DNA of 58,707 nt from an archaeon (GTDB taxonomy: Archaea > EX4484-52 > B79-G9). Positions 6,199-29,061 of the stretch are shown one piece after another. Location of the stretch: assembly GCA_043813875.1 (NCBI GenBank), contig JBDRKP010000067.1, positions 1-58,707 of the forward strand. The letters run 5' to 3'. Position numbers and translations under genes: made by a program. The notes beneath the pieces are model-generated. The model was not told where the DNA came from. It saw only the letters and a program-made list of their open reading frames with translations, and made no database searches. Numbering within the stretch: the first letter of the stretch is position 1; the number at the start of each line of letters is the position of its first letter.

Positions 6199-9100
6199 TT
6201 ATCGGCACCAGACACACTTACCCTTATAGATTCTGCCACCGCAGTCCGGACACACACTTTCGACAACATGTTCAAAAGCATCAGTTACAAACTTCTCACC
6301 AACGCCATCTCTACGAGACTTGTGCGTATAATACGCATCATTCTTCGAAAACGAACTAGAACCAGTTCCTAGAGGCACTTCAAAAGAATCATCACGAGTC
6401 TTCACCAAAGAATCACTAAACTTGTATCCGCACCACACACACCTATTCTGGAATATCTTCCCTCCGCACTCCGGACACTTAAGCTCAAGCACTTTTTCCA
6501 CAACATCAGCAATATATCTCTTTTTAGCAACAGAGTGCGCATAATAGACATCATGCTTCCCAAGAACCTTAAGCAACATAGAAGGAACCTTAACATTCGA
6601 CAAATCAATCTTTGGCAACCTCAAAAAGGGCGCTCCAGCCGACAAATCTCCCGGCAGGACAGGCTCCTTCGAATATGCAGTCCTGTTACGCAAAAAGAAC
6701 CAATATACCATAAGCGCACCCATCGCAAATAGCACAATAACAGCGACAGAGACAAAAGACCAGTTGACACCCGTCTCAGTCACATCACCTAACACCTTGA
6801 TACCCTCAAGCAACAACTGAATATTCTTCTCAGCTTCATCAAGCAGATAGCCCGCTTTATCATAATCCCCTCCATCAATATAACCGCCAGCATCTTTCAG
6901 ATTCTTCTGTGCAAGATCATAATAGACCTTCAATTCAGGAGTCAGTAAAGACACATCAATATCATCCAAAATAGAGCCCAATCTATCCAGCCTGTTTCGA
7001 AGAGACTGAACATCGACACCAACCTCATGAACTACCCTCAAAGTCACAAAAAGATCCTTACTGACATGATCATTAAACACAGATAACATGCCCACATAAT
7101 CGCCATCATCAACTCCACTGTCAATAGCACATATCCTGACAATTATTGACCTCTCTTCACCGGGATATAACATATCCAATAAAGAATCATAATTAGCCTC
7201 TAAAAATTTAGGCACCCCGGAAAGTTCAACATTCAGATTATTCAAAACAGTATTACCTTCATTAGACACATACACAGGCACATTAACGCAACTGTCGCCA
7301 CTCGCCGAGATACTTAGGATATAATACGACTCAGCAGATAATGACAAATCATAGACTTCAGCAACACTTCCATTTCCTTTTGGCACAATAACAATACCAA
7401 GTCCACTACTCGAAGAACTCGACGACGAACCACCCCCGCTTGAGCCACCATCGCAGGCCGTGACCTGGTAAGAACCACTACAGCAATACCCGGAACTATA
7501 AAGATTAGACCCGCAATAACAGACAGGCGAAATCACCCCCTCACCGCAATTAGAATAGGCAGCAGTCATAACGACATCAACATAGGTAATGTTTCCATCA
7601 CTGGTATTATAGGGACCAAGAACCACACCATCATAACCCACCTTGGCCGCAGTTACATTTATCGAAGTATTATAGACACTCGCATTAGCTAGAAGAAACG
7701 CCAACCCATCATCGCCACTGACCTGGCCATCAATATAGACAGTATCATTATACCACAAACTCACATTTACCCCGCCGACAGACGTATTGACTCTGAATAC
7801 GCCATAACCGGCAGTACTATTAAGAACTAAAGAGAGATTATTGCCGTTATCCTTATCCATTCCCGGCTGAACATCAACAGACAAGTCAGGCGCAAAATAG
7901 CCACGCAGATACAAATCAGTCCTATTGAACACCACAGGATACTGGCCCGTAAGCGAATAATTTACCTTCAGAAAATATATTTCCCCACTTGCATCAGTAA
8001 CATTAGTCAAATTACCGATACCAACACTAACATTGCCAAGACCAGCAGTTCCATTGCTGATATTCACATAGAACTGCGTCTCGTTTGCATACAATATTTT
8101 GCTGTTCATGGCGCCAATATTCGCAACATCGATCGTGCTGTCAAAAACAGACATATAATCCAAAAGCCCCGCAAACTCCAGAGAATACATACCCGGCAAC
8201 ACCTTATAGAACAGCACAGAACCATTGACAGTGACATTCGTAACCGACGGCAGAGACTTAAGAGTCACATTAATCCCGGAAAGCGCCACCCCGGATTCAT
8301 CAAACAGAGTGATATTCACTTTAGTGATATTAAGCACAACATTCCTTTGCACAGGCGTCTCTGTTGGTATGATATGCGACTCAAGATAATAATCATACCC
8401 CATAGCGGTCCCGTTCACGAGAAGGTCATAATCGCTAAAATTATCTCGGTTGACAACGCACACATATTCATTATAATAGAAATCGCAATCAGATTTATCG
8501 ATAACAAAAGTGCCACCGCTCGCAATATTCTGCACTAATTTGATTGAAACATTCTTAGAGATCAACTCATTATTCTCGGAAGTCACATTTATCCTGATAA
8601 AAGACAAAGGCGCAGGCACAAGAGACAAATTATAATTGACAGTCGGCAAAGTGGATATAGTGATATTATCAAGGATATAATAACCGGTCTTGATTACCCT
8701 TATAGTATAAGGAGGATAACTCAGGACACCAGTCCTTGAATTGACATCAAAAGAAAATGACCCATCAGCAGCAGTCAGCCCGCCATACGCCTCACAATTA
8801 TCATAGATCATATCCCCTCCATAACACTGGTGCGAACGCAAAAGAATCGAGGCACCAAAAATAGGTCGCGACCCGTTATGCACTTTCACATAACCGCTGA
8901 TCACCTTGTCCCCTAAAAGACCGACATTGACATTTTTGCTGACATCAACATCATTTTCATACTTGACGCTCAACCCCACAGCAGATACATTAAAACAATA
9001 ATCCTGATAGCTTGAAGGATTTTCCTGCATCATCGGTGAGACAACAAGAGAATATGTGCCGTTGCCTGCAGTCACTGTCTGATACCTAAGAAGCGTCGGC

Positions 9101-12100
9101 GACGGTATGACATCACACGATGTTTTCGCATACATCTTAAGAGTTGCAGCAGAGACGGGCTCATAAGAAAGATTCATAGGCTGCTTGAAATTCATATCAT
9201 AGACATACCCTGATAATGTAGTATTACCGCCAAGCCCCAATCTTATCATCGGCTTGATGCCAAGCGAGTTCACAGAATCATCATAAGTCCCCCTGCGCTG
9301 GATTCCTTCGTTCAGATCATCATACTGTACATAACCATTCGCATTGACAGAGACATAATAAGTCAATAACCCATTGACCTTGATCTTGGCCCTTCCATTG
9401 ACATCTGTATTCCCGGAATTCTGTATGACAACACCAACCACATTAGCATAATACGTCATCCTTCCGTAACCGACATCTTCCCCATTGACAATGAAATCAT
9501 ATATTCCCGTAGGCACATTATATATCACCGCATTTCCGTTCGAATCTGTCTTGTTGGACCATCTGATCACAGTCGAATTATAATCCTTGATGCTTATAGT
9601 CACATTCACAGGCACGATATCACTGTTCAAAGTGAAATTCAGGTTGAATGTATTTCCCATAGACTGCGGAGGATCGACCCAGGCATAATTGCTTGAGTTG
9701 CCGGCAACGACATTCACCCTCGTAGAATTTTCGACAAGAATTCCGACAAATTTTGTCACAGTTACATTGCAGTCAATGCATGGGAGAGCCCGATTGAATA
9801 TCACAATGCCCCCGGCATCAGAAACACCAGTCATATTCCCGCCGGTTGCATTCTTTGCGACCGTCGTATTATCAGACAGATATAATGTCACACTCGCGCC
9901 GCCTACCGGCACAAATGAAGCATCAGTGACATTCACAATCAGTTTCGTGATATTGACGACAAGACTGGTCACACTGTCCCCAAAGATTGGACCATAAACA
10001 GAACCATTAAGCCCATAACCTTGTCTCGTGCCATTAACACTGATATTATAAGTATATCCGTCAACAAGGTCACTAAAGACAACATAACCGGAACTGGTTG
10101 TATTTTTAGTCAAAGTATAAGTCTGGTTATAAAGCCGAACAGATGCGCCGTCACCATTATCATCCGCCCCCACAAGACTTCCAGTCGTATCATTCACATA
10201 TACAATCAGGCTCACAGGAGCCGGCGTAACATTAAACACAAAATCCCCGCCTGATACGCAATTTCCTGCAGGGTCACAGAGCGTATAATTCCAGGAATAA
10301 CTATCATTGGCAAGAGCTGGTGAGAAAACGTTTTGATTTGAAACATAGCTGGCATTTGTCAATATCCACTGGGTGGAATTGGTCCAGTAAACGACAGTGA
10401 GATTGACCGGTTCGCTAGCATTTATTTCGAAACTGACAACAGCTGGTTCCACAAAATAGGACGGGTCAACAGGACTCACATCAATCGCAGTCGGATAGAC
10501 AGTATCAACCGTAAACACCCTTGGCCCTGCAATCCCTGTCCTGCCGTTATATGCCTTCCCGTAGAAGACAACGCTATAGCTCCCATCAGCCATACTGAAT
10601 ATTAGATCATAAAAATTGGTCATCGTCAGATTGAACATGCTTTCATTTGGCTGTCCGTTTAGCGAATAATTTGCACCAACAAGAGGCTTATTACCTGAAA
10701 TGTTAAAGAGCATGATTGCACCGCTGTTATAACTCTTATTCTCTGGAGACATGATTGATAACACAGGCACACTAGTATCAACAATAAACGAATAATTCGC
10801 AACAGAGAAATTATGATTGCCGCTGGTATCCGTACAGTTGATATTCCAGAGATAACTGCCCTCAGCAATAGCATTCAATGTAATCGAATTAAGAGCAGAC
10901 CTGACGATAACGCTATCATTCGTCATATTGAATTTCCACACACCTCCGGTGTCCGTCCACAGCTCACAGCTCTGTATCGGCGACAAATCAGTCACATTAA
11001 ACTCAAAAGTGACATTTTCAATATATGACGGAGTGCCATTAGGCGATATAAGAGTCACGAACGGCGCAACCGTATCCAGGACAGTGATATTTGCCGTCGT
11101 CTTATTGATATTGCCCCACGTATCATTGGCATATATCGTATAAATCTCCGTGCCGGCAGCCCCGGGGAGCCACGTATACTGATAAATATCACTCAAAACC
11201 CGGGCCATCGTCCGGTTAGTACCATCCACTTCAATAAGCACCATATCAACCATATTCTGCAAATCAATAGCTCCAATCGTAACAGTCACATAGCTGCCCA
11301 ACTCAATCGGGTCCGCACTCTCTGTGAGATTAAAAAAGACAGGAGGTATAGTATCAGTATTATAGGCATTCATATATGAAACACCGCCTGTACCGACAAT
11401 CATGCTCTCCTCATAATATCCGCAGCCAATTGAAGTTCCATCGACTTTCAATATATAGGTCCCGACCGGCACTGTCCTGAAATACACAATACTGCTACCG
11501 GAACTTGTATTAAGCGAACTGTAATAGTTATTTGTGACACCCACAAGAGTCACATTGAAGTCATCACGCTGCAGGCCGTTGCAGACAACACTGACATTCA
11601 CCCGGGTCTCATCAATATAATAGTTGTAATCCGTCTTGTTATTATACGTGTATAACTCAATATGCGCATCCCCAATCTCTTCATTATTCAACGCATACTT
11701 ATCATAGAGATACAGTTCAGCATAAGCTTCAAGAGCGATAACATCCGAAAAATTCCCGGCTAGGACCCCGCCATTCAGTGGAAGTATCTGTTCTATATAA
11801 CCATCCCTCGTTATCTTCAGCCTATAACTCTCCCCGCCCCGGATATTAAAGCTGGTAGCACCACCCCACCCTGTTGATTTTATATAAAGACAAGAAACGG
11901 AAGTCATATTATAAAACACGCATACCATGGAATTGTCGATATTCATATTATCGAAATCATCAATAGTCTTGACATAGATACTGACACTGCCATTCATAGC
12001 AATATCCTGGACTCTATCAGTCCCCCCCATACCAGTCCTGTCCTGATCCCATGTAAGATTTTCAATGACCTTGTTCTGATAACCTGCAAGCGATACCCGT

Positions 12101-14523
12101 ATATCATAATTAAAATCAACGCCCGTATCAAGCGAATAATTGCCATTGAAACCGGATACAGTACTATAATAGACAACGCCAGCGGCATCAGTCACCTCTA
12201 TAAGAACATTCGATAACGGGGGCACGATAGAAGAATACGCATCAGTAACCATGCCTTCCACATGCGTCGCACCCTTGAGATTCGCATCAATCTCTGCATC
12301 ACTCACCACAGAATAATTAGCCATCGACACATTATACCCCGGCTTATCAAACACCATAAGATAATCATTGACCTGTGAAGACACATAGAAAGAATACACA
12401 CCACTTCCATCCGTATAAGCCGTATATTTTTTTGAATCCATCCTGCTGACTAGCTCCACTTTCACGCCGTCAATATATTTATCATGCAAATTCAACAGAT
12501 CACTCACAACCCCATGCACCCTGTTCTTTCCCCGGAGAGCAAAATCACCGATATCCACAACACCAGACACAGCATATAGCTCACTATCAGGAAAATACCC
12601 CGCCAGATTAAAAGAAACATTATATTGAATCGCATCCCTGACAATCATACCGAATCTTCCAGAAGAATCAGTTACCGTGCGATATGAAACATTACCACCC
12701 GCAATAGTGACATTCACGCCAGTTAGAAGTATCGAATTATTCGTCTCATCAACCAACGTGCCATTAAGCGTTCCAAGCCCTGAAAGGAAAATATCACCAT
12801 AATCAACAGAAGAACTATAAGCTGTCGAATTGGCATAGACAGCATAACCCTCAAAAGATACCTCAATCGTATGACTCACGCCGCCTCTGACAGACATGTT
12901 GAACGACCCGGACGAATCAGTAAGCGCTTGATACATATTCGATCCGCCGCTGATAATCTTGACAAGAGCCCCGCTTATTGCGTGACTGGTATTGCTCGCG
13001 TCAATCACTCTTCCCGATACAGACGCACTGCCAGTAAGATTCACAGGCTTTATGGTAGAAGACGCCACCAGCACATCTTTGGATATGTATCCCGAAGCGC
13101 TCATCTTAAGATATGCATTGCAATTAGGCGTCCCGGCCAAGGTGCTTGGGTAATTTATGGAATAATTTCCTGACGAGTCCGTATAAGCCCCATAATAATA
13201 ACTTCCACCCCACCCGGCGCGGATTGTATTAAGATAATTCCACAACTCAATATAAGCGCCGCTGATAACCGGATCGATAAGATTATTTTCCGAATCGAAA
13301 ACATGCCCTCTCACCTCGCATGTGCCTGTCTGGTTGACATAGATATTCTTATTCGTGCCCTCAAGAATCGACTCCGAATACAGGTGCGTATGATTATACC
13401 CCAATGCAGCAATGGAAATATCATGCAAGACACCCGCATTGCTTGTAGTATTTGCAACAACCTCGATCAGGACATTGCCGCTCACGTCAGTAAAACCGGT
13501 TTTGTTAAAAGTATCAGAATAAAAAAGAGTGACATTTGCATTCGGTATGGGCCTGCTGTTCCACACATCAAGGACAGTAAAATTATAGCTTCCATATCCC
13601 TTAAGGTAAAGGCTGGTATTCAGGATAAAAGCTTCAACAGAACCGACAGTAACAGTAATATTACGGTAATTGCTGTCCCCATACATAAATCCATCCAGAC
13701 CATTGATAGAGCCATTGAATATGACAAAAAATGACCCCCACGTCGAAAGATCAATAAAATAATTACCTGCCGAATCAGTCAGACTGGAAGCGACAATATT
13801 ACCGACTGATAAATTATATACACTCACATTCATACCAGATATAGGGTCCCCGCTAAACCTTGTAACCTTTCCGGATACGTTCCTTGAGCTATCAAGAGAC
13901 ACAACGTCATTCACATTAAAGCCCTCATTCACCACACGACCCGTCAATATCTGTGATTTATATCCGCCTTTGACCAGACTGATATTATGGACCACACTAT
14001 AATCCGTATTATTAGCGATCACCTGGATAAGAACATTACCGGACGCATCAGTCATCTTAGATTCCACATCACCGGTTGACGCAAAAACAGTGATATTGAC
14101 ATCTACAAGAGGAACACCACCTATAAGATCATATACAGTAAGATTATAGCTCCCGTGATTATCAGGATAAAGGCTTGTATTGAGCGACAGGTTCTCCGCG
14201 CCGCCGAGAGTTATCGATACATTCCGATACGGATCCGCGCCATAAACAAAACCGCTCTTATTATATATGACATAATAATCCCCTGCATCCGAAAGATCAA
14301 CATAATAGGTACCATTTGCATCAGAAAGATTTGATGATATCAGCGCTCCATCAGTCAGATTATATACGCTCACATTGACCCCGTCAACAGGCGTGCCATT
14401 GAACTGTGTGATGACACCTAAAATACTCGGCGGAGCAGCATTCACAAATACGAAAAGGAAAAACAGGAATAAGAATATCAAAGAGGATTCAATATTCCGT
14501 GAAGATTTCCTTGCTGTCATCAT
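6199..14523 (-). CDS. Giant (2774 aa) cell-surface protein: carboxypeptidase-regulatory-like/Ig-like repeats, Cys-rich motif, Ser/Gly linker, TM helix, two cytoplasmic Zn ribbons
   Basis: N-terminal signal peptide. Repeated SG.V.D...I.GA.V...TD..G.Y/F...GY units and DT.PP Ig-like starts. TM segment FVSVAVIVLFAMGALMVYWFFL. CPECGG..CVWC and CPDCGG..CVWC at the C-terminus. Confidence 0.85.
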   Translation of the reverse strand: MMTARKSSRNIESSLIFLFLFFLFVFVNAAPPSILGVITQFNGTPVDGVNVSVYNLTDGALISSNLSDANGTYYVDLSDAGDYYVIYNKSGFVYGADPYRNVSITLGGAENLSLNTSLYPDNHGSYNLTVYDLIGGVPLVDVNITVFASTGDVESKMTDASGNVLIQVIANNTDYSVVHNISLVKGGYKSQILTGRVVNEGFNVNDVVSLDSSRNVSGKVTRFSGDPISGMNVSVYNLSVGNIVASSLTDSAGNYFIDLSTWGSFFVIFNGSINGLDGFMYGDSNYRNITVTVGSVEAFILNTSLYLKGYGSYNFTVLDVWNSRPIPNANVTLFYSDTFNKTGFTDVSGNVLIEVVANTTSNAGVLHDISIAALGYNHTHLYSESILEGTNKNIYVNQTGTCEVRGHVFDSENNLIDPVISGAYIELWNYLNTIRAGWGGSYYYGAYTDSSGNYSINYPSTLAGTPNCNAYLKMSASGYISKDVLVASSTIKPVNLTGSASVSGRVIDASNTSHAISGALVKIISGGSNMYQALTDSSGSFNMSVRGGVSHTIEVSFEGYAVYANSTAYSSSVDYGDIFLSGLGTLNGTLVDETNNSILLTGVNVTIAGGNVSYRTVTDSSGRFGMIVRDAIQYNVSFNLAGYFPDSELYAVSGVVDIGDFALRGKNRVHGVVSDLLNLHDKYIDGVKVELVSRMDSKKYTAYTDGSGVYSFYVSSQVNDYLMVFDKPGYNVSMANYSVVSDAEIDANLKGATHVEGMVTDAYSSIVPPLSNVLIEVTDAAGVVYYSTVSGFNGNYSLDTGVDFNYDIRVSLAGYQNKVIENLTWDQDRTGMGGTDRVQDIAMNGSVSIYVKTIDDFDNMNIDNSMVCVFYNMTSVSCLYIKSTGWGGATSFNIRGGESYRLKITRDGYIEQILPLNGGVLAGNFSDVIALEAYAELYLYDKYALNNEEIGDAHIELYTYNNKTDYNYYIDETRVNVSVVCNGLQRDDFNVTLVGVTNNYYSSLNTSSGSSIVYFRTVPVGTYILKVDGTSIGCGYYEESMIVGTGGVSYMNAYNTDTIPPVFFNLTESADPIELGSYVTVTIGAIDLQNMVDMVLIEVDGTNRTMARVLSDIYQYTWLPGAAGTEIYTIYANDTWGNINKTTANITVLDTVAPFVTLISPNGTPSYIENVTFEFNVTDLSPIQSCELWTDTGGVWKFNMTNDSVIVRSALNSITLNAIAEGSYLWNINCTDTSGNHNFSVANYSFIVDTSVPVLSIMSPENKSYNSGAIMLFNISGNKPLVGANYSLNGQPNESMFNLTMTNFYDLIFSMADGSYSVVFYGKAYNGRTGIAGPRVFTVDTVYPTAIDVSPVDPSYFVEPAVVSFEINASEPVNLTVVYWTNSTQWILTNASYVSNQNVFSPALANDSYSWNYTLCDPAGNCVSGGDFVFNVTPAPVSLIVYVNDTTGSLVGADDNGDGASVRLYNQTYTLTKNTTSSGYVVFSDLVDGYTYNISVNGTRQGYGLNGSVYGPIFGDSVTSLVVNITKLIVNVTDASFVPVGGASVTLYLSDNTTVAKNATGGNMTGVSDAGGIVIFNRALPCIDCNVTVTKFVGILVENSTRVNVVAGNSSNYAWVDPPQSMGNTFNLNFTLNSDIVPVNVTISIKDYNSTVIRWSNKTDSNGNAVIYNVPTGIYDFIVNGEDVGYGRMTYYANVVGVVIQNSGNTDVNGRAKIKVNGLLTYYVSVNANGYVQYDDLNEGIQRRGTYDDSVNSLGIKPMIRLGLGGNTTLSGYVYDMNFKQPMNLSYEPVSAATLKMYAKTSCDVIPSPTLLRYQTVTAGNGTYSLVVSPMMQENPSSYQDYCFNVSAVGLSVKYENDVDVSKNVNVGLLGDKVISGYVKVHNGSRPIFGASILLRSHQCYGGDMIYDNCEAYGGLTAADGSFSFDVNSRTGVLSYPPYTIRVIKTGYYILDNITISTLPTVNYNLSLVPAPLSFIRINVTSENNELISKNVSIKLVQNIASGGTFVIDKSDCDFYYNEYVCVVNRDNFSDYDLLVNGTAMGYDYYLESHIIPTETPVQRNVVLNITKVNITLFDESGVALSGINVTLKSLPSVTNVTVNGSVLFYKVLPGMYSLEFAGLLDYMSVFDSTIDVANIGAMNSKILYANETQFYVNISNGTAGLGNVSVGIGNLTNVTDASGEIYFLKVNYSLTGQYPVVFNRTDLYLRGYFAPDLSVDVQPGMDKDNGNNLSLVLNSTAGYGVFRVNTSVGGVNVSLWYNDTVYIDGQVSGDDGLAFLLANASVYNTSINVTAAKVGYDGVVLGPYNTSDGNITYVDVVMTAAYSNCGEGVISPVCYCGSNLYSSGYCCSGSYQVTACDGGSSGGGSSSSSSSSGLGIVIVPKGNGSVAEVYDLSLSAESYYILSISASGDSCVNVPVYVSNEGNTVLNNLNVELSGVPKFLEANYDSLLDMLYPGEERSIIVRICAIDSGVDDGDYVGMLSVFNDHVSKDLFVTLRVVHEVGVDVQSLRNRLDRLGSILDDIDVSLLTPELKVYYDLAQKNLKDAGGYIDGGDYDKAGYLLDEAEKNIQLLLEGIKVLGDVTETGVNWSFVSVAVIVLFAMGALMVYWFFLRNRTAYSKEPVLPGDLSAGAPFLRLPKIDLSNVKVPSMLLKVLGKHDVYYAHSVAKKRYIADVVEKVLELKCPECGGKIFQNRCVWCGYKFSDSLVKTRDDSFEVPLGTGSSSFSKNDAYYTHKSRRDGVGEKFVTDAFEHVVESVCPDCGGRIYKGKCVWCR

Positions 14524-24317: not shown

Positions 24318-24466
24318 CTTATTTTTAAGTGCTTAATGACCTCTATCGGCAAAGCGCATAAAATACATATATAAAATCAATCAACAGAATAACAGAATAC
24401 ACAAAATGAAAGATCAGTCAATTAAACCCCAAAAAAATATACAACACAGAATATATATCCGGACAC

Positions 24467-24481
24467 AAAAGAGTTTATATA
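24467..24481 (+). promoter_or_regulatory. BRE/TATA promoter of the nrdR-nrdD operon
   Basis: Purine-rich AAAAGAG followed by TTTATATA at 24474-24481, about 100 nt upstream of the start codon. Confidence 0.6.
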
Positions 24482-24506
24482 GATTGGAGACACATATATC
24501 AGTACA

Positions 24507-24554
24507 ACACCACATCTAGTGGTTTGGCAGGAAAATCACTACTATATATAGACG
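24507..24554. promoter_or_regulatory. Tandem NrdR boxes
   Basis: ACACCACATCTAGTGG (24507-24522) and CTACTATATATAGACG (24539-24554). Both keep the invariant C-A-AT-T-G positions of acaCwAtATaTwGtgt, with 32-bp spacing. Confidence 0.8.
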
Positions 24555-24582
24555 CCATATCATCCTTGAGGAGGGGAACCAT

Positions 24583-27039
24583 TTGAAATGTCCGTACTGT
24601 TCATCTAGTGAAACGAAGGTCTTGGATAAAAGATTCACCGAAGATCTTGAAGTGAACCGCAGAAGAAGAGAATGTATCTCATGCAACAAAAGATTCACGA
24701 CCTACGAGAGGATAGAGACACACCCATTATTGATCATCAAAAAAGACGGCTCAAGACAGGAATACGACAGGAACAAGATCCTAAAAAGCATCCTCGTATC
24801 ATGCCAGAAAAGACCCATAAGCCAGGAATCCATTGAAAGGATCGTAGACGAAATCGAAAGCGAACTGCTGCACTTGGACACCCAGGAAGTCGAGAGCAAA
24901 AAGATCGGTAACCGCGTAATGAAAAAACTCAAGACATTAGATGACATTGCATACATCAGATTCGCATCTGTCTACAGGTCCTTCAAAGACATAGAATCAT
25001 TTGAACGCGAACTGCACAAGCTGAAAGTCGTAGGAGAGACGCAGAATACAGGCTCTGACTCAACAGACATACTCTTACAGGTCACAACAACATCAGAGGG
25101 AAAAATAAGCGAATGGAACAACGAGCGCATCGTAAGCGCCCTCATAAGAGAGATCAGGATCCCGCGCGACGAAGCCATAGAGATAGCCGATGCCGTTGAA
25201 AAAAAAGTATTCTCATCCGGGATCAAGACAATATCCGTGAGCCTCATACGCGAACTTGTAGACATAGAACTATTCACCAGAGGCTACGACAAGAAACTGG
25301 AAAAACAGGGAATCATAGGGATGCCCCATTATAACTTAAAACAGCTGATATTCAACAAAAGCAACGAAAACAGCAACGTAGCTGCAAACAACCCCGAAGC
25401 AGTCAACCTGGCGATCGCAGAAAACACACTGAAGCAATACGCACTAAAAGAACTATTCTCAGAAGACATATCCTCAGCACACATGAAAGGCGCAATCCAC
25501 CTGCACGACCTCGGATACCCGATCCGCGTATATTGCAGCGCGCACAGCCTCGAATACATAAAGAAATACGGCTTGAGGCTCATCAACCTCTCAACCACGT
25601 CAGCCCCGGCCAAACACGCAGGAACACTTACAGGCCACCTGAACACATTCCTCGCATCCATGCAAGCATACTACGCAGGCGCCCTCGGGATCAGCTACGT
25701 GAACATATTCTACGCGCCATACCTTGTAGGCATGAGCTACGAGAAGATGAAACAGGAAGCACAATACCTGATCTTCTCATGCAGCCAGAACGCGTTCTCG
25801 CGCGGCGGCCAGACATTGTTTATTGACTTCAACATACACTTAGGGATTCCAGGATATCTCAAAGATGTGCCGGCTATAGGCCCTGGCGGCAAATACACAG
25901 GAAAAGTCTACGCTGACTACGAAGAGGAAGCCCAGCAATTCGCAAAAGCGCTTCTAGACGTCTGGCGGGAAGGCGACGGCGAAGGCAAGCCATTTCCTTT
26001 CCCTAAATGCGACCTTCACGTAGACAAGACAACCTTCAGCGACCCGAAACAATACGAACTCCTGAAATACGCATGCCAGATAGCCTCAGAAAACGGCTCA
26101 CCATACTTTGTCTTCGACAGGGACGAAATAAACCTCTCCATGTGCTGCCGGTTGAGGACAAAAATAGTCGACGACTACGTAATCAAACACCCGGAAAGCA
26201 TGAGATTCTGCGGCTTCCAGAACGTAAGCATAAACCTGCCCCAGGCCGCCTACAGGGCTGGAAAAGGCAACCTTGAAGGCACAATATCTGAACTGCACAA
26301 AGCAATGAAACTTGCGGTAAAAGCCCACATACAAAAAAAGAAATTCATACAGAAACTGATGAGCGTCCCGGGCGCACCCTTGTGGCAGGTAGGCCAGATC
26401 GCCCCCGACGGCAGGCCATACATCGACCTTGAGACAGCCACCTACATACTAGGCATCATAGGACTCAACGAATGCGTAAAATATATAGTTGGTCAGGAAC
26501 TGCACGAATCAGAAGAAGCATACAGGACCGGCCTGAAAATAATCTCTGCCATGTACCTCAGATGCAAGGAATTCGAAAAAGAATACAGCCTGAAATTCAC
26601 TCTCGAAGAGACGCCCGCAGAAAGCGCATCCTTAAGGCTCGCAAAAATCGACCTGAAAGAATACCCCGAAAGCAAAGACTACATACGCGGCAACAAGAAA
26701 AAAGGAGAGATATATTACACGAACAGCGTACACTTGGCACCAGACGCACCGGTCGACATCATAGAAAGAATCGAAAGGCAATCCAAATTCAACACACTGA
26801 TCGAATCAGGAGCAATAACCCACGTGTTTTTAGGCGAGCAGAAACCGGATATGGGAAGCGTATTATCTCTGATCAAAAAGACATGGGATAACACCCAATG
26901 CGCACAGATCACAATATCCCCCGAATTCACAATATGCAATGATTGCCATAAACTATCCAGAGGTTACGCAAGAGAACAGAAACCTCAAACAAAGGCCATA
27001 AAAGATATGCCAAAAAAAGAGGGGGCGGTTGTAGCATGA
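24583..27039 (+). CDS. nrdD: NrdR-NrdD fusion: NrdR repressor (Zn ribbon + ATP-cone) fused to a class III ribonucleotide reductase that lacks its glycyl-radical tail
   Basis: N-terminus MKCPYC...RRRRECISCNKRFTTYERIE, IIKKDG ATP-cone and YIRFASVYR (NrdR). Then a second cone and the NrdD core: IHLHDL, YCSAH, SRGGQ, PFPFP, MCCRL, ETPAES, YYTNS, GAITH and FTICNDC. RBS GAGGAGGGG. Confidence 0.92.
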   Translation: MKCPYCSSSETKVLDKRFTEDLEVNRRRRECISCNKRFTTYERIETHPLLIIKKDGSRQEYDRNKILKSILVSCQKRPISQESIERIVDEIESELLHLDTQEVESKKIGNRVMKKLKTLDDIAYIRFASVYRSFKDIESFERELHKLKVVGETQNTGSDSTDILLQVTTTSEGKISEWNNERIVSALIREIRIPRDEAIEIADAVEKKVFSSGIKTISVSLIRELVDIELFTRGYDKKLEKQGIIGMPHYNLKQLIFNKSNENSNVAANNPEAVNLAIAENTLKQYALKELFSEDISSAHMKGAIHLHDLGYPIRVYCSAHSLEYIKKYGLRLINLSTTSAPAKHAGTLTGHLNTFLASMQAYYAGALGISYVNIFYAPYLVGMSYEKMKQEAQYLIFSCSQNAFSRGGQTLFIDFNIHLGIPGYLKDVPAIGPGGKYTGKVYADYEEEAQQFAKALLDVWREGDGEGKPFPFPKCDLHVDKTTFSDPKQYELLKYACQIASENGSPYFVFDRDEINLSMCCRLRTKIVDDYVIKHPESMRFCGFQNVSINLPQAAYRAGKGNLEGTISELHKAMKLAVKAHIQKKKFIQKLMSVPGAPLWQVGQIAPDGRPYIDLETATYILGIIGLNECVKYIVGQELHESEEAYRTGLKIISAMYLRCKEFEKEYSLKFTLEETPAESASLRLAKIDLKEYPESKDYIRGNKKKGEIYYTNSVHLAPDAPVDIIERIERQSKFNTLIESGAITHVFLGEQKPDMGSVLSLIKKTWDNTQCAQITISPEFTICNDCHKLSRGYAREQKPQTKAIKDMPKKEGAVVA

Positions 27040-27215
27040 ACGAGACAGAAACAACAGAGACAGACATTCCGCGATGCCCGCACTGTGGAAGCACTAACGT
27101 ATACGGCATGAGCAGAGTAGTCGGGTATTATTCAAAAATCGATAATTGGAACAAGAGCAAAAAATCCGAATTCAAAGACAGGCAAAAAGGAAACTACAAG
27201 ATTTCTGAATTGTGA
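27036..27215 (+). CDS. Stand-alone NrdD C-terminal glycyl-radical domain (59 aa; absent from the supplied ORF track)
   Basis: Translated by hand: MNETETTETDIPRCPHCGSTNVYGMSRVVGYYSKIDNWNKSKKSEFKDRQKGNYKISEL. It has CxxC, the RxxGY radical motif and WNxxKxxExxDR, an ATGA overlap with the upstream stop, and a G-rich RBS. Confidence 0.9.
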   Translation: MNETETTETDIPRCPHCGSTNVYGMSRVVGYYSKIDNWNKSKKSEFKDRQKGNYKISEL

Positions 27216-27219
27216 TGAC

Positions 27220-27477
27220 ATGAAGATAAAGATATTCACAAAAGAAGACTGCCCTAACTGTCCGCCAGCCAGGGATCTCGGGAAAATACTGGAAGCCGAA
27301 GGTCTCGACGTAGAATACCACGACATATCTACGATAGACGGGCTGACAGAATCATCATACCACGGAATCATGTCAACGCCATCAGTTCTGGTCATCGGAA
27401 AAGACGGCAAAGAGAAGACAGGCTGGAGAAGCACCGTACCAGACATCAACGAAATTCGCCAGGTGCTCGGCAAATGA
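27220..27477 (+). CDS. Thioredoxin/glutaredoxin-like (NrdH-like) redoxin
   Basis: IKIFTKEDCPNCP (CxxC) and cis-Pro motif IMSTPSV, inside the RNR operon. Confidence 0.85.
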   Translation: MKIKIFTKEDCPNCPPARDLGKILEAEGLDVEYHDISTIDGLTESSYHGIMSTPSVLVIGKDGKEKTGWRSTVPDINEIRQVLGK

Positions 27478-28181
27478 TCGATGTAGACATAAGAGGGATA
27501 TTCAACACATCACTCATAGACTATCCCGGAAAGATCGTATCAACAATATTCTTCAACAGATGCAACTTCCGGTGTCCATTCTGCCATAACCCGGAACTTG
27601 CATTGGATAAAGACCAGAACAACCCGATAGATACCGAAAAAATCATAGAGCACCTCATAAAAAGAAAAAAATGGCTTGACGGCGTTTGCCTGACGGGCGG
27701 AGAGCCGACACTGCACAAAGGACTCACTGAATTTATCGAAAACATAAAAAAAGAAGGATTCCTGGTAAAACTGGACACAAACGGCACAAACCCGTCAGTC
27801 CTCAAAGCACTTATCAAAAAAAAACAGCTGGACTACATCGCGATGGACATAAAGACAAATCTGGAAGACTATGAGAATGTCGCAAAAGTCAGGGTAAACA
27901 AAAAAGACATCAAAAAGAGCATCGGACTGATTCAAAACAGCACAATAGACTACGAATTCCGCACAACCATCGTACCGCCATACTTCAACAAAGACAACCT
28001 GATCAATATATGCGAATGGCTAAAAGAATCAAGACTTTATGTACTTCAACAATTTAAAAATAATACAGCAATGATTGATATGACACTATCAGATGTGGCT
28101 CCATACCCACAGAAGACAATAATGGAATTTAAAGAAATTGCATCAAAATACTTCAAAAACTGCGAAGTACGAGGAATATAA
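27474..28181 (+). CDS. nrdG: Anaerobic RNR activating enzyme (radical SAM)
   Basis: SLIDYPG, CNFRCPFCHN, LTGGEPT, KLDTNG, YIAMDIK and YEFRTT. Confidence 0.93.
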   Translation: MIDVDIRGIFNTSLIDYPGKIVSTIFFNRCNFRCPFCHNPELALDKDQNNPIDTEKIIEHLIKRKKWLDGVCLTGGEPTLHKGLTEFIENIKKEGFLVKLDTNGTNPSVLKALIKKKQLDYIAMDIKTNLEDYENVAKVRVNKKDIKKSIGLIQNSTIDYEFRTTIVPPYFNKDNLINICEWLKESRLYVLQQFKNNTAMIDMTLSDVAPYPQKTIMEFKEIASKYFKNCEVRGI

Positions 28182-28198
28182 AGAGGAGGCGGTATTAA

Positions 28199-28393
28199 AT
28201 GCCATATAAGATCACTATAGACGAAGAAGAATGCATCGGATGCGGTACATGCGCTGCACTATGCGACGAAAATTTCAAGATGGGCGACGACGGCAAAGCA
28301 AAAGTAAAAAACAAGACCGTGAACGAGCTAGGCTGCAACGAAGAAGCTAAAAACAGCTGCCCGGTATCATGCATCCACATCGACAAAGCATAG
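28199..28393 (+). CDS. Monocluster ferredoxin
   Basis: CIGCGTC...CPVSCI in a 64-aa acidic protein with RBS GAGGAGG. Confidence 0.9.
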   Translation: MPYKITIDEEECIGCGTCAALCDENFKMGDDGKAKVKNKTVNELGCNEEAKNSCPVSCIHIDKA

Positions 28394-28401
28394 TGAAGCA
28401 G

Positions 28402-29061
28402 ATGACCAAAGAAAAATGCATATGCACTCCACACGAACTATTAGAACAATACAAACAGGACAAAACAATCATAAAAGACCGGCTGAAAGAATTCAGAGAT
28501 ATGATGAAATCTTCCGACGAAACAATATTCTCAGAACTTGTTTTCTGCCTCTTCACCCCACAGTCGAGCGCAAAAAAATGTGACAGAGCCGTAAGACGCT
28601 TGATAGACGCCAACCTCCTGTTGGAAGGCGAGTCATCCGACATCGCAAAAGAAATAAGAGGTGTCCGCTTCCACAACACAAAATCAGCAAGAGTCATCAC
28701 CGCAAGAAACCAGTTCACAGAAAACAACCGCATAAGCATCAAAAAAAGAATAAACTCATACAGCGACAACTACGAACTAAGAGAATGGCTCATCAAAAAC
28801 GTAGACGGCCTCGGATACAAGGAATCAAGCCATTTCCTAAGAAATATAGGCCTTGGATTCGACATGGCAATACTAGACAGGCACATCTTAAACAACCTTA
28901 AAGCCCTCGATGTCATAGACTGCATCCCAAAAAGCATATCAAAGTCAAGATACCTGTCGATAGAAAGGAAGCTGATAGAATTCTCCGGAAAAATAGGACT
29001 CAGCCCAGCCGAACTAGACCTCCTCTTATGGTCAAAAGAGACCGGCGAAGTCTTCAAGTAG
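28402..29061 (+). CDS. ogg: 8-oxoguanine N-glycosylase/DNA lyase (Ogg2/AGOG-type HhH)
   Basis: FSELVFCLFTPQS, VRFHNTK, GLGYKESSHFLRNIG, AILDRHIL and C-terminal LDLLLWSKETGEVFK. Confidence 0.9.
   Translation: MTKEKCICTPHELLEQYKQDKTIIKDRLKEFRDMMKSSDETIFSELVFCLFTPQSSAKKCDRAVRRLIDANLLLEGESSDIAKEIRGVRFHNTKSARVITARNQFTENNRISIKKRINSYSDNYELREWLIKNVDGLGYKESSHFLRNIGLGFDMAILDRHILNNLKALDVIDCIPKSISKSRYLSIERKLIEFSGKIGLSPAELDLLLWSKETGEVFK

Follow-up and report, generated by a model that had tools for sequence, protein, structure and literature searches.

The window analyzed here is the whole of contig JBDRKP010000067.1 (58,707 nucleotides [nt]; assembly GCA_043813875.1), which comes from an archaeon of the GTDB lineage EX4484-52; B79-G9. 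It carries a class III (anaerobic) ribonucleotide reductase (RNR) whose NrdD protein is encoded by two open reading frames (ORFs), here called nrdD-large and nrdD-small. Both belong to a compact cluster of same-strand genes at positions 24583 to 29061 (+ strand, as are all window coordinates below unless otherwise stated), in which they are followed by a thioredoxin-like gene, nrdG, a ferredoxin gene, and the gene of an Ogg glycosylase. An initial annotation, made from the sequence of the window, had described a split NrdD at this place, and its sequence statements all held on re-inspection.

Large and small chains of NrdD

The nrdD-large gene (24583..27039) is an ORF with a TTG start that encodes the 818-residue catalytic chain of the reductase. 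The NRDD family model PF13597 covered residues 262 to 794, corresponding to model positions 1 to 519 of 562 (E = 2e-119), and the match to TIGR02487 scored 375 bits against a cut-off of 326. Across 39 large chains, 116 alignment columns were invariant. Among them were those of C521, C522, and R523, the finger loop with the MCCR motif (26143..26151), and those of C785 and C788, the first Zn-ligand pair (CNDC; 26935..26946), which aligned to CLDC at residues 684 to 687 of 8p23, a solved NrdD chain from Prevotella copri. The large chain stops 30 residues past C785-N-D-C788 (FTICNDC), and this tail (26947..27036) varied in both length and sequence among relatives. Inspection of the 818-residue translation revealed no RxxGY motif, as the initial annotation had stated together with the early end of the ORF.

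The nrdD-small gene (27036..27215) encodes a chain of 59 residues, which matched positions 517 to 561 of the 562 in PF13597 (E = 3e-12) and positions 541 to 580 of the 581 in TIGR02487. On the PF13597 model, the two ORFs abut with three positions of overlap. The small chain carries C14-P-H-C17 (C14 at 27075..27077 and C17 at 27084..27086), R27-V-V-G30-Y-Y, in which G30 (27123..27125) is the putative radical glycine, and the C-terminal tail WNKSKKSEFKDR. The two model matches bear out the proposal that this ORF supplies the second Cys pair, the radical glycine, and the tail. Residues 6 to 49 aligned to residues 691 to 735 of 8p23. In the part of the P. copri report that was accessed, residues 676 to 739 are described as one domain, comprising the structural Zn site and then the Gly711 loop (PMC11226230). 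Given an offset of four residues in numbering (743 residues in the 8p23 chain versus 739), we infer that G30 falls on this Gly711.

Among 100 small proteins, C14, C17, R27, V28, and V29 were invariant, and G30 was found in at least 90%. In the proteins of the search described below, the N termini ahead of the core differed greatly in length and began with Met. A Pfam search with the small chain returned PF13597 plus weak zinc-ribbon matches below the cut-off and no glycyl-radical domain of the pyruvate formate-lyase (PFL) type. A tblastn search detected no second copy of the small gene in the 58.7-kb window, with the next best match (E = 0.11) extending over 7 residues. In phage genomes, 22 records matched the small protein, all with less than 60% identity, and the annotated matches fell under nrdD genes; no stand-alone small gene was seen among these 22 records, whose matches were not individually examined.

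By alignment, the break between the two chains interrupts the glycyl-radical domain and separates one half of its putative structural Zn site from the other, and both Cys pairs of this site are present and invariant. Because the break falls between the Cys pairs, the Zn site, if formed, would be built from two chains. Complex prediction agreed with this arrangement, which the initial annotation had put forward as a Zn site shared between two chains. The input consisted of large-chain residues 150 to 818, the small chain, and one Zn, with our own alignments of 39 and 100 rows. The complex score was 0.82 (0.80 to 0.85 in three runs), and the best control reached 0.02. In the calibration, 116 of 157 solved complexes attained the 0.82 mark, as did 2 of 215 mismatched pairs; these counts hold only roughly here, given the use of own alignments and of Zn in the complex model. 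The runs agreed in at least 75% of contacts, and the predicted local distance difference test score (pLDDT) of the partner was at least 73. The contacts of lowest error were those of large-chain residues 781 to 788 with small-chain residues 21 to 26, of C785 with C14 and C17, and of C788 with C17. The first set is consistent with a predicted inter-chain strand pair, and the others set the two Cys pairs next to each other in the model. The predicted interface includes large-chain residues 522 and 523 of the Cys-Cys finger loop and small-chain residues 21 to 33, with G30 among them. Large-chain residues 798 to 818 are absent from this interface and were unplaced in the model. One-chain NrdDs would lead one to expect this same arrangement.

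Junction between the two genes

The ATG of nrdD-small overlaps the TGA of nrdD-large as ATGA (27036..27039). Together with a Shine-Dalgarno (SD)-like GAGGGGG (27019..27025) and a 10-nt spacer, it makes up a putative coupling junction at 27019..27039. We compared this junction among the eight closest sequences, namely, the window and L001 to L007, which are seven independent assemblies. The block GGAGGCGGTTGCAGT-ATGA, of the GGAGGCGGTTGCAGTATGA type, with SD sequence, spacer, and start/stop overlap, was kept in all eight, so that the G-rich ribosome-binding site and ATGA overlap first noted in the window recur in each of its closest relatives. The two chains are most likely made separately, by termination-reinitiation at ATGA, a coupling that is suggested by the geometry of the junction.

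The initial annotation had also raised the alternative that a frameshift or a homopolymer error could join the two ORFs, and the features on which it drew are both present: the frame of nrdD-small, which is -1 relative to that of nrdD-large, is open from 26952, and an A7 run lies at 27012..27018. A programmed -1 frameshift at CC[A AAA AAA]G (27011..27019), a formal slippery heptamer in the correct register of the large frame, would give a one-chain NrdD with a linker of approximately 47 residues, as the main or a side product. Such a product could fold, since a natural one-chain relative (P0106, described below) has a similarly long linker, and the A7 run occurs in L001, L003, and L004 as well as in the window, with the -1 frame opening just 5' of it in those three relatives. 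However, the run is not conserved: L002, L005, L006, and L007 lack it despite having the same SD and ATGA junction, which leaves it in four of the eight closest sequences. A7 runs are also common: of the 75 matches counted across the window, three start at other places in nrdD-large and five start in nrdG. No stimulatory RNA structure was found 3' of the run (folding z score, +0.68; 145 of 200 shuffled sequences folded as well), nrdD-small has its own SD sequence and ATG, and distant relatives show other frames, long gaps, and intervening genes between the two ORFs. Programmed frameshifting is therefore improbable for the window, and as a general explanation a frameshift or error at the A7 run was ruled out by the conservation of the junction, the varied frames, the frequency of A7 runs, and the absence of structure. 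Minor slippage in the lineage of the window is possible.

A sequencing error is a still weaker explanation. The A7 and G5 homopolymer runs lie 17 to 24 nt 5' of the stop codon, and a single-base change in either would join the frames of an otherwise contiguous nrdD. Against such an error, the same stop/start overlap was found in the seven independent assemblies L001 to L007, four of them without A7, and the glycyl-radical domain had a separate ORF in 72 of the 80 loci examined below. In addition, approximately 43 residues separate the two Cys pairs in the window, versus 13 in the contiguous relative P0107 and 9 in 8p23, and a simple indel in a normal gene would therefore not give this junction. 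We consider a one-base error very unlikely, and the frameshift or homopolymer alternative as a whole was largely rejected.

Conservation of the split among relatives

A genome scan with one genome per species yielded 170 confirmed loci, of which the best 80 (L-numbered) were analyzed. The radical domain was encoded by a short ORF (54 to 103 codons from stop to stop) in 72 of them and lay inside a contiguous ORF of 780 to 904 residues in the other 8, most of which were labeled as bacteria. This answers a check suggested with the initial annotation, whether orthologs keep the same split. In a protein search restricted to lengths of 32 to 104 residues, all 105 scored candidates matched the small protein (48 to 97 residues, 59 to 89% identical). 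Their source labels were Nanohalarchaeota, Aenigmarchaeota, Woesearchaeota, Nanoarchaeota, Heimdallarchaeota, and other Asgard bins, and several of them sit on contigs of 40 to 325 kb. Relatives of nrdD-small are called as genes in public databases, and some are named by homology.

A window-like large gene was located directly upstream of the small gene in 53 of the 72 short-ORF loci. L046 is cut at the contig end yet has the thioredoxin-like gene and nrdG downstream, and it brings the linked loci to 54 in all. The frame of the small gene relative to the large gene fell into the three classes in 25, 16, and 12 of the 53 loci; the rows for L037, L043, and L054 are unreliable in this count, as they derive from a mis-set large ORF. 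The start of the small gene ranged from a 7-nt overlap with the large-gene stop to a gap of more than 1 kb, and the two genes were separated by a ferredoxin gene in L008, a 167-residue ORF in L026, and approximately 1.2 kb with several ORFs in L051. Of 55 linked small genes, 42 had an SD-like 5-mer ahead of an ATG in frame, and 10 more had a 4-mer there; the background rate of the SD-like sequence in random 15-nt windows was 5.4%. Past the small gene, 53 of the 54 linked loci had a thioredoxin-like gene and 51 had nrdG, and the loci missing either gene had at most 1,264 nt of downstream sequence to inspect. The gene order of large, small, thioredoxin-like, and nrdG is conserved.

Both genes are under strong purifying selection. 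Between nrdD-small and its counterpart in L001, the ratio of nonsynonymous to synonymous rates (dN/dS) was 0.008, with proportions of nonsynonymous and synonymous differences (pN and pS) of 0.02 and 0.72, and across close relatives dN/dS ranged from 0.008 to 0.02. These values bear on the view that the locus is an nrdD pseudogene in a reduced genome, with nrdD-small as a leftover fragment. The host does resemble a small-genome DPANN-type archaeon, and such lineages lose genes. Yet the 116 invariant columns in 39 large chains, the low dN/dS of the small gene, the intact and syntenic activase and reductant genes, and the large genes of close relatives, in which neither early stop codons nor a relaxation of selection were seen, all stand against decay, which is extremely unlikely; the pseudogene was ruled out by the selection on both genes.

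Altogether, the comparison indicates that the split is real and conserved and that it spans DPANN-type and Asgard archaea, as their records are labeled. It is not an artifact, because separate ORFs are found in 72 of 80 loci, the small gene occurs in three frames and at many distances from the large gene, it has its own SD sequence and is under purifying selection, and the SD and ATGA junction is kept in all eight closest sequences.

Two side observations concern these loci. In L043 (2579-4984 of that locus), where the small gene is separate as usual, the large gene is itself in two ORFs of 519 and 280 residues that lie in different frames, as the result of either a second break in the gene or a faulty assembly. 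Some split loci come from bins labeled Saccharibacteria, Berkelbacteria, "bacterium," or Methanosarcinales (L008, L013, L028, L054, L060, L065, and others). The NrdD of these oddly labeled bins groups with DPANN-type sequences, and the labels reflect either mis-binning or transfer between episymbiont lineages.

Contiguous relatives and insertions in the large gene

A search for longer relatives of the small protein gave only six candidates, three of which scored, and is weak evidence for that reason. It yielded the contiguous relatives P0106, P0107, and P0108. The linker between the Cys pairs has 13 residues in P0107 and P0108. In P0106, which has 897 residues and an NrdR-type ribbon, the linker has 33 residues and contains GGGIMDEKK, which resembles the read-through remains of a ribosome-binding site and a start codon. 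P0106 is either a natural re-fusion or the result of an assembly frameshift in its record. We built a tree of the catalytic core by a quick search (LG+G4 model, no bootstrap, unrooted). In this tree, the eight bacteria-labeled contiguous forms lay on one side of a branch (support, 99), and 40 split forms lay on the other, with P0106 and P0107 nested among them (support, 99), although the placement of P0107 is not strongly supported. The simplest reading of this tree would be one ancient fission followed by occasional re-fusion.

Insertions of approximately 220 to 470 residues were observed in the catalytic core of the large chain in L050 (990-4991 of that locus; 1,333 residues), L053 (16-3159; 1,047 residues), and P0108 (1,132 residues). 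Because the precomputed Pfam list of P0108 includes a LAGLIDADG domain, these insertions are probably inteins. RNR genes are reportedly known as hosts of inteins and of split inteins, and together with the three insertions this raises the idea that the two chains of the window are joined by protein trans-splicing through a split intein. The 30-residue tail of the large chain and the 13-residue N terminus of the small chain are too short for intein halves, however, and they have no Pfam intein match and are not conserved. Trans-splicing was ruled out on size and missing motifs, and there is hardly any chance that it operates here.

Unlinked copies of the small gene

The other 18 of the 72 short ORFs had no nrdD-large, nrdG, or adjacent thioredoxin-like gene within the fetched locus. 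Twelve of these unlinked copies were in 11 assemblies that also hold a linked split locus, as judged by accession prefixes, and one assembly had two unlinked copies. Six were located directly after a long UvrA gene (L038, L067, L071, L076, L077, and L079), three directly before the gene of an HhH-GPD base-excision glycosylase (L017, L048, and L057), and five beside Roadblock/LC7 genes in Heimdall-labeled bins (L033, L035, L062, L069, and L073). Two others lay near genes for alanyl-tRNA synthetase and a GTPase (L044 and L072), and two followed a DUF7121 gene (L045 and L075). The Cys pair, RVVGY, and the tail were kept in all 18 copies, and orthologous pairs of them showed dN/dS values of 0.03 to 0.17 where dS was unsaturated. 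In a tree of small proteins, which was poorly resolved (48-column core; L055 left out), unlinked copies grouped with linked copies of the same lineage, and seven contiguous forms grouped together (98/94). The well-supported branches force at least five changes between the linked and unlinked states. Because their motifs are kept, purifying selection is evident, and at least five state changes are needed, the unlinked copies appear to be functional paralogs that arose more than once. They retain half of the Zn site and should therefore dock on the same large-chain surface. A second, unlinked large gene elsewhere is a possible partner for them.

Five of the UvrA-adjacent small genes lack a standard start (L038, 1871-2113; L076, 4905-5147; L077, 2738-2980; L067 and L079, 4917-5162): the stretch from the upstream TGA to the Cys pair contains neither ATG nor GTG nor TTG in frame. 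In all five, codon 4 is an ATA that aligns with the ATG start of the L071 ortholog, and GAGGG stands just upstream. The dN/dS values of these five genes were 0.05 to 0.07, and an ATA start or another unusual initiation is possible. Approximately 50 to 90 nt upstream of all six UvrA-adjacent copies, we observed a conserved element, ATCTCT[A/C/T]GAGTTT, followed by the TATA-like box TTTA[T/A]ATAGAAAA. The palindromic CTCTAGAG core of this element could be a regulator site, and these copies seem to have their own promoter.

NrdR-like module and other features of the window

The N terminus of the large chain is NrdR-like (24583..24990). It matched TIGR00244 over residues 1 to 147 (175 bits; cut-off, 125) and consists of a Zn ribbon (residues 1 to 42; PF22811) and an ATP-cone (residues 50 to 136; PF03477). 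A second, weaker ATP-cone-like stretch lies between this module and the NrdD domain. The Zn ribbon and ATP-cone are common to the bacterial NrdR repressor and residues 1 to 147 of the large chain, whereas NrdR is a free-standing protein of approximately 150 residues and the module of the window is fused to NrdD. The initial annotation had spoken of a large repressor-enzyme, and of this reading it is the NrdR-like N terminus that the sequence shows. The NrdR-like module was found as a separate gene just upstream of nrdD in at least 11 relatives (L008, L010, L013, L025, L028, L030, L036, L054, L055, L059, and L065). The fusion of a repressor-type sensor to the enzyme that it would regulate appears to be an unusual arrangement, and no mention of an NrdR module fused to NrdD was found in the literature examined, a search that did not extend to subscription journals and supplements.

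A GGAGG SD-like site, read from the sequence (24570..24574), precedes the TTG start of nrdD-large by 8 nt. Farther upstream (24440..24560), there are several ACAC..ATATAT-type motifs, a 13-nt direct repeat with its copies 41 nt apart, and the sequence TCACTACTATATATAGAC, and these could be TATA boxes or NrdR-box-like sites. Downstream of nrdD-small, an 85-residue thioredoxin/glutaredoxin-like protein with CPNC (27220..27477; PF13192 and PF00462) is the likely reductant of the reductase. The next gene, nrdG (27474..28181), encodes the radical-S-adenosylmethionine activase and matched TIGR02495 (NrdG2) with 209 bits against a cut-off of 131. It is followed by the gene of a small 4Fe-4S ferredoxin of 64 residues (28199..28393; identified by Pfam) and by the final gene of the cluster, which encodes an 8-oxoguanine DNA glycosylase (Ogg) (28369..29061; PF22175). 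The ferredoxin gene is in the operon of L002, L003, L005, and L007 too, where the Ogg gene has the same place. The Ogg gene at the end of the cluster echoes the DNA-repair neighborhoods of the unlinked small genes, a resemblance that proves nothing.

Elsewhere, the window encodes PCNA, MCM, TBP, topoisomerase VI, RFC, the ribosomal proteins L15e and S26e, tRNA-intron endonuclease, and FtsZ. These genes and a GC content of 42.6% identify it as part of an archaeal chromosome, and the nearest public relatives are genome bins labeled Nanohalarchaeota. A 2,774-residue ORF on the - strand (6202..14523) with many carboxypeptidase-regulatory-like repeats probably encodes a giant surface protein.

Discussion

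The reductase of the window shares its catalytic features with the one-chain NrdD enzymes of P. copri (8p23), phage T4 (1h78), and Thermotoga maritima (4coi and 4u3e), namely, the barrel, the finger loop, the residues of the Zn(Cys)4 site, the RVxGY loop, and the C-terminal tail, together with an NrdG activase and a thioredoxin-type reductant. The double-Cys finger loop of the MCCR type is linked to thioredoxin-type reduction in the portion of the source that was available (PMC9669993). The reductase of the window differs from the one-chain enzymes in that its chain is broken within the glycyl-radical domain, at a point between the Cys pairs, that approximately 43 nonconserved residues (30 and 13) replace a linker of 9 to 13 residues, and that an NrdR-type Zn ribbon precedes the ATP-cone. 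Thus, on the sequence features examined, the enzyme corresponds to NrdD in every respect except the single polypeptide.

We propose, with a probability of about 85%, that the locus encodes a true two-subunit class III RNR in which the small chain is an obligatory, radical-bearing subunit and both chains contribute ligands to the Zn site, should it form. In the proposed mechanism, ribosomes finishing nrdD-large would restart at the overlapping ATGA, and both chains would be made together. The small-chain strand N21-S26 would pair with the large-chain strand E781-C788, one Zn would be bound by C785 and C788 of the large chain and C14 and C17 of the small chain, and the G30 loop would enter the barrel beside the finger-loop cysteines. 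NrdG and S-adenosylmethionine would then place the radical on G30, and the thioredoxin-like protein would return electrons.

Several points weigh against this proposal or against a benefit of the split. The high score in the complex prediction indicates likeness rather than binding and may reflect memory of solved one-chain NrdDs. The evidence for the junction of the window itself is comparative, and some fused protein could arise in the window and in three close relatives, where an in-frame A_AAA_AAA coincides with an open -1 frame. In one small protein, P0006 (58 residues, 79% identical, two member sequences), V stands where the radical glycine would be (RVVVYY), which reflects either an inactive copy or an error in sequencing. 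The positions of P0106, P0107, and P0108 inside the split clade suggest that one-chain and two-chain forms are functionally close and interconvert, and the split therefore need not confer a benefit. Neutral fission would account equally well for the existence of re-fused forms and for the close 1:1 coupling seen in the lineage of the window.

Known systems with a separate radical-loop protein offer a comparison for a possible benefit. Like nrdD-small, the PFL spare-part proteins GrcA/YfiD and Y06I of phage T4 are small stand-alone proteins with a radical loop and a variable N terminus, whose genes are separate from that of the barrel. The likeness extends to the additional, unlinked small genes of relatives and to O2 cleavage at the radical glycine as the damage to be absorbed, according to the sections consulted of two papers (PMC13450708, PMC8683613). 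In contrast, nrdD-small is not homologous to the PFL-type domain and contributes two putative Zn ligands. Because the large chain lacks a radical loop, the small chain would be an obligatory subunit rather than a back-up. The small gene of the window is operon-linked; among relatives, 18 of 72 small genes are unlinked, 12 of them in assemblies that also have the operon. Among RNRs, the class II enzyme of Pseudomonas aeruginosa is reportedly made from two adjacent genes, with the C-terminal part of the chain on a second polypeptide (NrdJa/NrdJb). That enzyme is said to be B12 dependent and to have no glycyl radical, another break point, and a large second piece.

In the accessed part of a recent review, O2 is stated to cleave glycyl-radical enzymes at the radical glycine (PMC13450708), and such damage here would therefore fall on the 59-residue chain. 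The small chain may, tentatively, be a consumable radical cartridge, in line with the replaceable subunit proposed in the initial annotation: O2 would cut only the small chain, at G30, and the halves would leave, a step that loss of the shared Zn might assist; a new small chain would then dock, and NrdG would reactivate the enzyme, so that the 818-residue chain is saved. The unlinked copies in Asgard and Woesearchaeota-type genomes, of which some have a promoter-like element of their own and lie next to UvrA or a base-excision glycosylase, could then be stress-regulated isoforms that restore the supply of deoxynucleoside triphosphates for DNA repair after oxygen exposure. This idea gains circumstantial support from the unlinked small genes in relatives, and the extra copies beside repair genes raised our estimate for exchange, although it still stands clearly below even odds.

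[quoted passage not shown] No published split NrdD or RNR spare part was found in our full-text literature search, which left subscription journals and supplements uncovered. The finding carries a warning for annotation, as nrdD-large alone resembles a truncated NrdD and the small gene is often called hypothetical. It also provides a ready two-piece construct for studying how the activase reaches the buried glycine and a natural system in which to test the off-enzyme activation and exchange of radical domains. Were the split no more than a neutral fission of the gene, it would still offer a clean case of a structural metal site shared by two chains. If true, the cartridge would be the first spare-part system outside the formate lyases.

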